A stretch of DNA of 64,000 nucleotides from Escherichia coli (lineage in GTDB: Bacteria > Pseudomonadota > Gammaproteobacteria > Enterobacterales > Enterobacteriaceae): the NCBI RefSeq assembly GCF_003019035.1, contig NZ_CP027447.1. The stretch is one strand, 5' to 3'. Shown in pieces: positions 55,310 through 63,241 of the stretch. The notes under the pieces are model-generated. The model saw only the letters and a list, made by a program, of their open reading frames with translations. It did not search any database and had not been told where the DNA came from. Both the position numbers and the translations under genes were made by a program. The stretch's first letter is position 1, and the number at the start of each line of letters is the position of its first letter.

Positions 55310-57568
55310 TTACTCTTCGCTATCACCGCTGCTGGCACGGCGAGGAGAGTCGATCTCAACACGATCGATACGCTGCAAACCGCGCATCAACGTACCGCGG
55401 CGTCCACGTTCGCCAGTGACTTTCTGTAGCTCTTCCGGACGCAGTTTAATTTTGCGTTTCCCAACATGAATGGTCAGCGTGCTTTGCGGCGGCAGAACGT
55501 ACAGTTGCGCCAGACCATCTTCTCCACGCGCGGCTTCTGCCGATGGAATGTTGATAATCTTGTTGCCTTTGCCCTTCGACAGCTGCGGCAGATCGCTTAC
55601 CGGGAACATCAACATACGGCCTGCCTGAGTGATTGCCAGCAGCATATCGGAAGCATCTTCAATCACCACCGGCGGCATAACATGGGCATTTTCCGGTAAG
55701 GTGATCAAAGCCTTACCTGCACGGTTACGCGCCACCAGATCGTTAAAGGTGCAGACGAAACCGTAACCCGCATCGGAAGCCATCAGCAGTTTCTGATCGT
55801 CGCTTTCCATCAGCATATGGTCAACGGTCGCTCCAGGCGGCAACGTTAATTTGCCGGTGAGCGGTTCGCCCTGACCACGCGCCGACGGCAGCGTAATCGG
55901 GTCGATGGCATAGCTACGACCGGTGGAATCAACAAACACTACCGGTTGGTTGCTCTTACCTTTCACCGCCGCTTTGAAGCTATCGCCCGCTTTATAATTC
56001 AGGCCCGGCGCGTCGATATCATGGCCTTTAGCGCTGCGTACCCAGCCCATCTGCGACAGCACAATGGTGACAGGTTCAGACGGCAGCATGTCGTGCTCGC
56101 TCATCGCTTTCGCTTCTTCGCGTTCCTGCAACGGCGAACGACGTTCGTCACCGTAGGCTTGCGCGTCTGCCTGCAGTTCTTTCTTCAGCAGGTTATTCAT
56201 TTTACGCTCGGAAGCCAAAATGCCCTGCAACTGGTCGCGCTCTTTTTCCAGCTCACTCTGCTCACCGCGAATCTTCATCTCTTCCAGTTTGGCAAGATGA
56301 CGCAGTTTCAGTTCGAGGATCGCTTCCGCCTGGGTTTCCGTAAGGCCAAACCGCGACATCAGCGCCGGTTTCGGTTCATCTTCATTACGAATGATCTCAA
56401 TCACTTCGTCGATATTGAGAAACGCCACCAGCAAACCTTCGAGGATATGCAGGCGCTTGAGGACTTTCTCCAGACGATAGTTCAGTCGGCGGCGCACGGT
56501 ATCGCGGCGGAACACCAGCCATTCGGAGAGGATTTCCAGCAGGTTTTTCACCGCCGGACGACCATCCAGACCGATCATATTGAGGTTAATGCGATAGCTC
56601 TTTTCCAGATCGGTGGTAGCGAAGAGGTGGTTCATCACCTGATCCATATCCACGCGGTTGGAACGCGGCACAATCACCAGACGGGTCGGGTTCTCGTGGT
56701 CAGATTCATCGCGCAGATCGTCAACCATCGGCAGCTTTTTGTTGCGCATTTGCGCAGCAATTTGCTCCAGTACGCGCGCACCTGAAACCTGATGCGGCAA
56801 TGCGCTGATAACCACCGCGCCATCTTCTTTCTTCCAAACCGCGCGCATACGCACTGAACCACGTCCGTTCTCGTAGATTTTACGAATCTCGGCGCGCGAA
56901 GTGATAATTTCCGCTTCAGTCGGATAATCCGGCCCCTGCACGATATCCAGCAGCTGATCGAGCGTGGTTTTCGGCTGGTCGATTAATGCGATTGCCGCCT
57001 GAGCCACTTCACGCAGGTTATGCGGTGGAATATCGGTCGCCATGCCGACGGCAATACCGGTGGTGCCGTTAAGCAAAATGTTTGGCAGACGGGCAGGCAG
57101 CATTTTCGGCTCCTGCAAAGTGCCGTCGAAGTTTGGCACCCAGTCAGCCGTCCCCTGCCCCAGCTCGCTCAATAGCAGCTCGGAATATTTCGACAACCGG
57201 GATTCGGTGTAACGCATTGCCGCGAACGATTTCGGATCGTCCGGCGCACCCCAGTTCCCCTGACCATCAACCAGCGGATAACGGTAAGAGAACGGCTGCG
57301 CCATCAGGACCATCGCTTCATAACAGGCACTATCGCCGTGCGGATGGTATTTACCCAGTACGTCACCGACGGTACGGGCCGATTTTTTAAATTTGGCGCT
57401 GGCATTCAGGCCCAGCTCAGACATCGCATACACAATGCGGCGCTGAACAGGTTTCAGACCATCACCAATAAACGGCAACGCACGGTCCATGATCACGTAC
57501 ATGGAGTAGTTTAAGTAGGCGTTTTCCGTAAATTCATGTAGCGCAAGGCGCTCTGCCATATCGCTCAT
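55310..57568 (-). CDS. parC: DNA topoisomerase IV subunit A
   Basis: 752-aa ORF; GyrA/ParC family with active-site region AMRYTE. Confidence 0.95.
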
Positions 57569-57705: not shown

Positions 57706-59313
57706 TCAATGTGCCTTGATATACAACTCTTTGCTGTAGACATAATCCTGGGGATTATGCAGCGGAAAACCGCCAACGTAGGGTTTAAGCAGTTTGATTA
57801 ACGGCTGATAGTAGATAGGAATCAGCGGTGCCTGCTGGTTGATGATCACTTCTGCCTGCTGATACAACGCATTACGCTTTGTTGCATCAGCCGTTTGTGC
57901 CGCCTGGTTTAGTAAGGCGTCATACTGCGCGTTTTTCCAGTGGCCGACATTTTCCTCGCTATCGCTCTTAAGCGTGTTCAGAAAGGTGGAGGCATCATTG
58001 TACGTCGCATCCCACGACTGCCGAGACAACATGAAATCACCGGCTCGTCGGGCATCAAGATAAGTTTTCCACTCCATTGTGCGCAGCGTCACCTGTGCAC
58101 CCAGCCATTTTTTCCATTCGGAAGACAACGCTATCGCGGTCTTTTCATGCAGATCGTACTTGTTGTAGAACAGCTCAAAGCGTAGCGGATGAGAGGCGTC
58201 GTATCCCGCCTGTTTCAGCAAGACTTTTGCCATCGCGACGCGCTCACTCATTGGCTTTTGCAGTTCATCGAACGTCGTCGCGCTAAAGCCTTTTACCTCT
58301 GGCGGCGTCAGCGTGGTTGCGGGCGTTCTCAACCCCAGTACCTTTTGCGCAATAAGCTGTCGATCAACCGTAAGATATAGCGCCCGACGCACCCGCACAT
58401 CGTTAAATGGCGGTTTCTCAAGGTTAAAGTTGTAATATTCGCTGTTCAGACGCGGGATAATTCGTAGCTCGCCAGGCAGTGATTTTTCAATGGCGGGAAT
58501 TTGCTGCGCCGGAACCCAGGTGAGATCGACCTCTCCCGCGCGATAGCGGTTATAGCCGGTGACCGAATTATCCAGCGCCAGATACTCAACCTGTTGCAAT
58601 ACTGTATGTTGCGCATCGCGGTACTTTGGATTTTTGCGTGCAGTAATCTTTTCGTTAACTACCCACTGATCAAGCACAAAGGCACCGTTGTAAACCATGT
58701 TCCCTGGCTTACTCCAGCTATCGCCATGTTTAGCGATGACATGATGAGGAACCGGGAACAGCGTCGGCCAGGCGAGCATCGTCGTGAACCAAGGAACCGG
58801 CTGCTCAAGCGTAACTTCAAGAGTACGATCATCCATCGCTTTGACACCCAGCGATGTAACATCTGCTTTACCCGCAACAATAGCCGCGGCATTGTTAATG
58901 TGCGCCTGTGCCAGATAGCCAGCAAAAGGGCTTGCCGTTTTCGGGTCAACCGCACGTTGCCAGCCGAGGACAAAATCCTCTGCCGTCAGAGGCTGACCGT
59001 CTGACCACTGCAAACCGCTACGCAGATGGAAAATATAGCGCTTGCCGCCGTCCAGTATCTCCCAGCGTTCAGCCTGAGCGGGCTGCACCTGGCCTTCACC
59101 GTCCATCCATACCAGACCTTCAAACAGATCCAGCACAATCTGCGCGGCAGTATTCTCCTCTACCTTTTGCGGGTCGAGCGTGCCTGGGTCGCTATGATTG
59201 TTGTAACGAAAGACTTGTTGCGGGGCGAGCGGTGTGTTGGCGGGAACGTCAGCAGCGTAGAGAGGAGCCGCACTTACCAGGCTGACCAGCCATAATAAAT
59301 TTCGCGTATACAT
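57706..59313 (-). CDS. ygiS: periplasmic solute-binding protein of an oligopeptide-type ABC system
   Basis: 556-aa ORF trimmed to MYTRNLLWLVSL start (535 aa); SBP family 5. Confidence 0.85.
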   Translation of the reverse strand: MYTRNLLWLVSLVSAAPLYAADVPANTPLAPQQVFRYNNHSDPGTLDPQKVEENTAAQIVLDLFEGLVWMDGEGQVQPAQAERWEILDGGKRYIFHLRSGLQWSDGQPLTAEDFVLGWQRAVDPKTASPFAGYLAQAHINNAAAIVAGKADVTSLGVKAMDDRTLEVTLEQPVPWFTTMLAWPTLFPVPHHVIAKHGDSWSKPGNMVYNGAFVLDQWVVNEKITARKNPKYRDAQHTVLQQVEYLALDNSVTGYNRYRAGEVDLTWVPAQQIPAIEKSLPGELRIIPRLNSEYYNFNLEKPPFNDVRVRRALYLTVDRQLIAQKVLGLRTPATTLTPPEVKGFSATTFDELQKPMSERVAMAKVLLKQAGYDASHPLRFELFYNKYDLHEKTAIALSSEWKKWLGAQVTLRTMEWKTYLDARRAGDFMLSRQSWDATYNDASTFLNTLKSDSEENVGHWKNAQYDALLNQAAQTADATKRNALYQQAEVIINQQAPLIPIYYQPLIKLLKPYVGGFPLHNPQDYVYSKELYIKAH

Positions 59314-59421
59314 GGTATTCCTTACCGGAGAAATTATAAGCCCAACAACAATACGCCTGTGGCATTGTTCGCTCAAACTTATCGCGAGTGATTTGGCTCA
59401 CACTCCGGTAAAGATTCCCCA

Positions 59422-59904
59422 TCACGCTAACGGTACATAAACATCCGTTTCCAGTCGCTGCTCTGTCATCCCTTCGGCAAGATTGGTGTAGTGAAACAGG
59501 ATCGGGGCTTTGCGCATTTTTTCGCCGCTTGCTGGAAGCCAGTGGCGAATGATGCCCCATATCGTGTGTGAAATATCGTCCAGCTCGCCAACATGGCGGG
59601 CCACAGCATAACGTCCACCGGTAAGTTCACCATTACTTACGCCATAACGATTATCGGGGATCGGTTCGCTAACGCTGCCGCAGATATCAAAGCGAAACGC
59701 TTCTGGTGCGGTGGTGGCAGGGTCGTCCCAGGCGACGCCAAAAGTCTGGCTTTGGTTAACAGGAGAAAGCCCCGTCTCTTTACGCCACATGATAAATTTC
59801 GCCACGCTGTAGTTGAGCAACTCAGGGCTACAGCGGTGCGGCAACATCGCCACAGGGATTGATGGGAAATCGATAATATTTACATCCAGTGTCAGGTTTG
59901 TCAT
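59422..59904 (-). CDS. ygiV: GyrI-like small-molecule-binding domain protein
   Basis: 160-aa ORF. Confidence 0.8.
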   Translation of the reverse strand: MTNLTLDVNIIDFPSIPVAMLPHRCSPELLNYSVAKFIMWRKETGLSPVNQSQTFGVAWDDPATTAPEAFRFDICGSVSEPIPDNRYGVSNGELTGGRYAVARHVGELDDISHTIWGIIRHWLPASGEKMRKAPILFHYTNLAEGMTEQRLETDVYVPLA

Positions 59905-62884: not shown

Positions 62885-63241
62885 ATGTTAGCACTCTCTA
62901 AAAAAGTCCAGTCGGAGATCTGGTTTTCGATACCCTCCAGTAAATCTATTTAAAATAATCTGCGTAACACGCTGATATTTTCATTTTTAGTTATTCAACA
63001 CCACAATTATCAACTCGCAGAAAGTCCACACCAACGTTGTAAATTAACCCTGTGCTAGTTGGAATGATGAGAAATTGCTATCAGTATTGTCATTTTCAGA
63101 AAATATTTATCCCGCATCGGTGAATCAGAGCAAGATCAGACTTTTGCTAAATTCGCAAAAGACTTTGCACATTTTGCTAATTTCACCGTACCGCTCTGTG
63201 ACGTACTATAGTCGGTAAACGTCTCACCTTGAGGTTAAAAA

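Follow-up and report, generated by a model that had tools for sequence, protein, structure and literature searches.

In E. coli K-12, the mqsR-mqsA pair (ygiU-ygiT, b3022-b3021), a type II toxin-antitoxin (TA) module, lies between the genes ygiS and ygiV. In the strain studied here, ygiS and ygiV are immediate neighbours. This raises the question of whether the module is really missing from the strain and, if so, whether its lineage lost the module or never received it, an alternative that the initial annotation of this DNA had left standing. Hereafter, "the window" is the whole stretch of DNA that was analysed, 64 kb long.

The ygiS-ygiV spacer and its K-12 counterpart

In the window, 108 bp (59314-59421) lie between ygiS and ygiV; the minus-strand ATG start codon of ygiS is at 59313-59311 and the minus-strand TGA stop codon of ygiV at 59424-59422. 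Coordinates and open reading frame (ORF) listing agree that this spacer, which comprises the unoccupied mqsRA site and the region upstream of ygiS, is gene-free. Two mechanically called ORFs touch it, one of 42 aa (plus strand, 59312-59440) and one of 103 aa (minus strand, 59249-59560); they run out of frame into ygiS or ygiV, and are not genes.

Both neighbours are intact and lie on the minus strand. The ygiS gene (57706-59313) encodes a periplasmic substrate-binding protein of 535 aa, whose amino acid identity to K-12 YgiS is 98.7% over residues 1-535 (tblastn); the K-12 product is a putative deoxycholate-binding protein. The ygiV gene (59422-59904) encodes a GyrI-like / AraC-family effector-binding-domain regulator of 160 aa, 98.75% identical to its K-12 counterpart. 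On one side the locus continues with parC (55310-57568, minus strand), and beyond ygiV with ygiW, qseB, qseC, ygiZ, and mdaB.

The gene assignments rest on the ORF listing and on the annotation of E. coli SCU-301 (NZ_CP051751), the sole record identical to the window (100% over 24 kb; next best record, 99.0%). SCU-301 is a commensal of phylogroup F, ST967, isolated from a healthy student (PMC11251922). In its RefSeq annotation ygiS and ygiV are adjacent, with zero intervening features. The gap of about 108 bp devoid of genes, as first described, is thus exact on the basis of codon positions, ORF listing, and annotation of the identical sequence.

The gene order in MG1655 is parC-ygiS-mqsA-mqsR-ygiV-ygiW-qseBC-ygiZ-mdaB, and the initial annotation was correct in placing mqsRA between ygiS and ygiV. 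The window has the same neighbourhood, and the alignment to the K-12 region that had been proposed as a check returned a single point of difference between otherwise collinear flanks of ~97.5% nucleotide identity. At this point the window carries TTCCC (59415-59419; GGGAA in the ygiV sense) and K-12 carries 927 bp (NC_000913 3167820-3168746). The junction reads GGTAAAGA, 927 bp, CATCACGC in K-12, and GGTAAAGA, TTCCC, CATCACGC in the window. The right edge of the K-12 cassette is 2 bp past the ygiV stop codon and the left edge 101 bp upstream of the ygiS start codon; these 101 bp (59314-59414) are identical in the window and in K-12. The five bases serve to mark the pre-insertion allele.

In transcriptional order, the K-12 cassette consists of a promoter region of ~200 bp with two copies of the MqsA operator palindrome ACCTAAAAGGT, then mqsR, mqsA, and a GC-rich terminator-like hairpin with a T run. 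Relative to this locus, the window is without the entire cassette, i.e., promoter, operators, genes, and hairpin. The GC content of the cassette is 41.1%, versus ~52% in the flanks and 52-55% in ygiS, ygiV, and parC. No target-site duplication and no terminal direct or inverted repeats were found at the K-12 cassette ends, and the 927 bp contain no recombinase gene, nor room for one. Chromosomal TA modules have been described as minimal units of horizontal transfer that settle between core genes (PMC5120126), and the features of the mqsRA cassette fit this description.

Search for mqsRA elsewhere in the strain

An empty site between ygiS and ygiV does not by itself make the strain mqsRA-free, as a pair of the MqsR/MqsA family might reside at another chromosomal site, in a prophage, or on a plasmid, or might have diverged, in which case the function would not be missing. 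In the 64-kb window, tblastn with the K-12 proteins gave best E values of 0.63 for MqsR and 4.0 for MqsA. Indeed, the window contains neither a toxin gene for an mRNA interferase of ~98 aa nor, downstream of one, a gene for an antitoxin of ~131 aa with a zinc-binding N-terminal domain and an HTH domain. A promoter with MqsA operator palindromes (ACCT-N2-4-AGGT) is likewise missing at the locus, where the 108-bp spacer holds no palindrome of the type seen in the K-12 cassette. A blastn search of the window with the 927 bp (word size 7) returned only chance matches (E >= 0.6) and thus revealed neither remnant nor scar of the cassette.

The sole MqsA-operator-like pattern match in the 64-kb window is ACCTTGAGGT at 63226-63235. 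It is located just upstream of mdaB, occurs in the same place in K-12, and compares with a chance expectation of ~1 per 64 kb.

Outside the window, the search was carried out at the nucleotide level (blastn, which reaches matches of roughly 65-70% identity or more, with distant MqsR-family paralogues below its reach). A chimeric query, composed of 1.5 kb of the window (yqhD-dkgA) and the K-12 mqsRA cassette, was run with E values up to 1e-5. The SCU-301 chromosome ranked first and was matched in a single place, so the cassette part of the query is unmatched on that chromosome. Among the 5,426 complete E. coli genomes of our collection, mqsRA DNA was found on chromosomes only and on none of the plasmid records, and no more than 4 of the 2,299 genomes that contain mqsRA DNA can be without it at ygiS-ygiV.

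The possibility of a pair elsewhere draws on the MqsR-family plasmid pairs of many Proteobacteria, which share 35-67% protein identity and are too diverged for nucleotide searches. Against it stand the negative tblastn across the window, the single place matched in SCU-301, the empty plasmid records, and the rarity of copies away from ygiS-ygiV; furthermore, no MqsRA homologue was found in NRG857c, another E. coli strain that is mqsRA-less (PMC7232551). We therefore regard a functional pair elsewhere as extremely unlikely. The absence of the module from the strain, as claimed from the window alone, holds up: the copy at another locus that could have contradicted it was not found by tblastn in the window, nor by blastn with the chimeric query on SCU-301 and across the plasmid records.

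Distribution and origin of the empty site

The frequency of the different states of the locus was evaluated with junction-specific queries on the 5,426 complete genomes. Cassette DNA was present in 2,299 of them, and in 2,295 (42.3%) it was found at the locus with both flanks; among the partial cassette matches listed, one spans 63 bp only. A 106-bp query across the empty junction was contiguous in 3,122 genomes (57.5%), and a 306-bp query that also covers the ygiS 5' end, i.e., the configuration of the window, in 1,754 (32.3%). In a third haplotype, found in ~1,357 genomes (~25%), the junction is empty and ygiS is replaced. The three haplotypes total ~5,406 of the 5,426 genomes. Since the empty state is present in 3,122 of them, the K-12 arrangement is the minority state, and it is K-12, not this strain, that is unusual.

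The strains with an empty junction include O157:H7, O55:H7, APEC strains, and SCU-301. The empty allele of O157:H7, O55:H7, and APEC O2-211 has the same contiguous ygiV-spacer-ygiS arrangement as the window, with the junction 5-mer or a near copy of it; the empty alleles of other E. coli, E. albertii, and E. whittamii differ from the window by point substitutions only. A record of 4.83 Mb named DH5alpha (NZ_CP026085.1) has the ygiS-less and mqsRA-less haplotype, which is at odds with a K-12 derivative.

The third haplotype is exemplified by strain A1, in which the empty junction TTCCC is intact and nearly all of ygiS is swapped for a single-copy filler of ~246 bp (L002:5750-5995), the window counterpart (57745-59291) being absent. 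In one genome, BLAST placed the filler, at 92% identity, within a gene annotated as a group II intron maturase; an Rfam scan of the 246 bp gave a chance match only. Because the match lies inside a maturase gene, the filler is probably the remnant of a group II intron insertion that was followed by a deletion. Differing, internally deleted ygiS remnants are also present in Escherichia sp. MOD1-EC7003 (L004:5553-5922) and Escherichia sp. E1V33 (L006:3713-4140). These distinct remnants indicate at least three separate losses of ygiS within the genus.

The direction of change at the mqsRA site was assessed on other Escherichia species. A scan with YgiV, one genome per species, recovered five non-coli Escherichia loci: E. 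albertii, E. whittamii, Escherichia sp. MOD1-EC7003, Escherichia sp. E1V33, and one entry that carries the name E. coli but has a YgiV of only 94% identity (E. fergusonii was not among them). All five are arranged as qseB-ygiW-ygiV-(ygiS or remnant)-parC, collinear with the empty allele, and in none (0/5) is MqsR or MqsA present at the locus. In three of the five loci ygiS is intact and the spacer measures 108-110 bp, and the other two retain ygiS remnants only. Next to ygiV, the sequence of four of these loci can be aligned to the window base by base, and it contains the 5-mer GGGAA or a slight variant of it; in Escherichia sp. E1V33 the similarity to the window stops shortly after the 5-mer. 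The GGGAA 5-mer is missing from K-12 and is present in E. coli strain A1.

As the outgroups are empty and share the 5-mer or a slight variant of it, the empty site is the ancestral state and the K-12 state the derived one. On this basis, we read the spacer as the ancestral, never-occupied ygiV-ygiS region of Escherichia, with a lineage that never received mqsRA and a K-12 state produced by one horizontal insertion, and we assign this reading a probability of roughly 0.9. The alternative left by the initial annotation, never acquired or lost, is thus resolved towards the former by the comparison with the other Escherichia species.

A secondary loss of mqsRA from this strain would have occurred either by deletion or, more plausibly, by homologous replacement with the empty allele of another E. 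coli. The five bases argue against the first route: TTCCC is common to other Escherichia species and would not be restored by simply deleting the cassette, and blastn found no cassette remnant in the window. The second route is conceivable, given that recombination is frequent in E. coli, and the replacement of an ancestral mqsRA with an empty allele by homologous recombination would leave an identical sequence. Furthermore, alleles with and without the cassette coexist in strains with close flanks (those of the ygiS-less empty-allele genomes are 98.9-99.2% identical to K-12), and TA loci are known to decay (literature cited in PMC7167474). However, the flanks of the window, at ~97.5% to K-12, are not K-12-like and bear no sign of a past K-12-type allele, and the five other Escherichia species are all empty. 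Never acquired is thus strongly favoured over lost, and we consider a loss by either route very unlikely.

Under the favoured reading, in which the strain never acquired mqsRA, one horizontal transfer into an ancestor of K-12 and its relatives would have delivered a self-contained, AT-rich cassette of 927 bp, inserted 2 bp after the ygiV stop in place of 5 bp (GGGAA when read with ygiV). This insertion allele is now carried by ~42% of the complete E. coli genomes, and in the window the ygiS leader comes directly after ygiV.

Coherently with this scenario, the low GC content of the cassette (41.1%) is as expected of foreign DNA. The cassette is >=99% identical in 2,296 of the 2,299 carriers, and in the full-length matches listed the insert plus 500 bp on each side forms one unbroken alignment, with the exception of a case interrupted by IS1. 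The near-invariant cassette and the unbroken alignments fit a single origin. The core DNA that flanks the cassette shows 95-99% identity across the species E. coli, and the contrast between the near-invariant cassette (K-12 L001:7821-8747) and its variable flanks suggests that the cassette was gained once, recently, and then spread.

IS1 was observed inside mqsR in several genomes, e.g., NZ_CP025913 and NZ_CP093317.

The occupied allele therefore presents foreign-looking DNA, apparently of a single origin, at one fixed junction, and the empty allele is collinear with the outgroup species and free of cassette remnants. A recognisable insertion mechanism was not found at the cassette ends, which does not affect the direction of change.

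A search of PLSDB identified MqsR-family toxins on 73 plasmid records from diverse Proteobacteria, which indicates that the family is mobile. The closest real plasmid copy of MqsR, from an Enterobacteriaceae isolate, is 67% identical. The only 100% MqsR match in PLSDB is NZ_CP141089.1, a 4.94-Mb E. coli record filed as a plasmid and evidently a chromosome. In the literature, chromosomal TA modules are treated as horizontally transferred accessory genes, and mqsRA is variably present (PMC7167474, PMC5120126, PMC7232551, PMC11390585).

The ygiS leader and the meaning of the absence

The spacer was also inspected as an RNA. Folding of the minus strand of 59305-59430 gave -43.4 kcal/mol (z = -3.84), and none of 200 shuffled sequences was equally stable. 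The predicted structure contains a 12-bp stem on the minus strand, in which the 5' arm UCUUUACCGGAG (59403-59414) pairs with the 3' arm CUCCGGUAAGGA (59319-59330). The 3' arm includes AAGGA (59319-59323), likely the ygiS Shine-Dalgarno sequence. The first base of the 5' arm, 59414, is the last base common with K-12 before the insertion point, and the mqsRA insertion point abuts the base of the predicted stem. Five Escherichia sequences, among them E. albertii, E. whittamii, and K-12, preserve the stem, with zero compensatory changes among sequences that are highly similar. No Rfam family was matched in 59000-59800 (E up to 1). A scan of 59150-59650 gave no sigma-70 consensus promoter, so that the ygiS promoter was not placed, and the one hairpin resembling a terminator, weak and on the minus strand (59365-59353), is at chance level.

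One could speculate that the spacer encodes a structured ygiS leader conserved in the genus, whose predicted stem hides the ribosome-binding site; we deem this unlikely. If true, ygiS would be under its own translational control, e.g., via bile salt, temperature, or a trans-acting factor, and in cassette-free strains such as this one the leader would most naturally arise by transcription running on from ygiV.

As for mqsRA itself, the strain lacks the MqsR mRNA interferase and the MqsA repressor, and neither MqsR-dependent mRNA cleavage nor MqsA-dependent repression can take place in it. The initial annotation had considered the absence relevant to the interpretation of stress, persistence, and biofilm phenotypes. 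This relevance stands in a weaker form than implied. Effects of mqsRA on biofilm, on rpoS/csgD regulation, and on deoxycholate tolerance were not reproduced independently, and polar effects on ygiS have been suggested (PMC6918082; PMC7167474). Because independent work did not reproduce the published phenotypes (PMC6918082), being without mqsRA probably has little effect on phenotype.

What does change is the set of expectations that can be carried over from K-12, which are inapplicable to this strain and to ~58% of the complete E. coli genomes. They include MqsR/MqsA-dependent regulation, the MqsR-GhoT hierarchy, the proposed cleavage of ygiS mRNA by MqsR under deoxycholate stress, and the persistence results obtained with the delta-10 TA deletion. 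The main value of the locus is in its correct annotation; otherwise, it is ordinary.

Fiedoruk et al. 2015 and Ramisetty and Santhosh 2016 reportedly described chromosomal type II TA modules as patchy among E. coli phylogroups. Both works are among those that PMC7167474 cites on uneven TA distribution. In a figure of the same review, no TA system is common to MG1655, W, EDL933, and UTI89 (PMC7167474). For this module in particular, a mastitis pan-genome found mqsR, mqsA, and ygiS to behave as accessory genes (PMC11390585), and a PCR survey of urinary isolates found mqsRA to be variably present (PMC11059956).

Compared with this known pattern, the window presents one more K-12 module that is missing outside K-12's phylogroup, at an intergenic site of the core genome, with no difference in kind. 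As one more instance of the uneven distribution of TA modules, the patchiness of mqsRA is already known, and what is added here is incremental: the exact junction, the frequencies among 5,426 genomes, and the polarity of the change as read from other Escherichia species.
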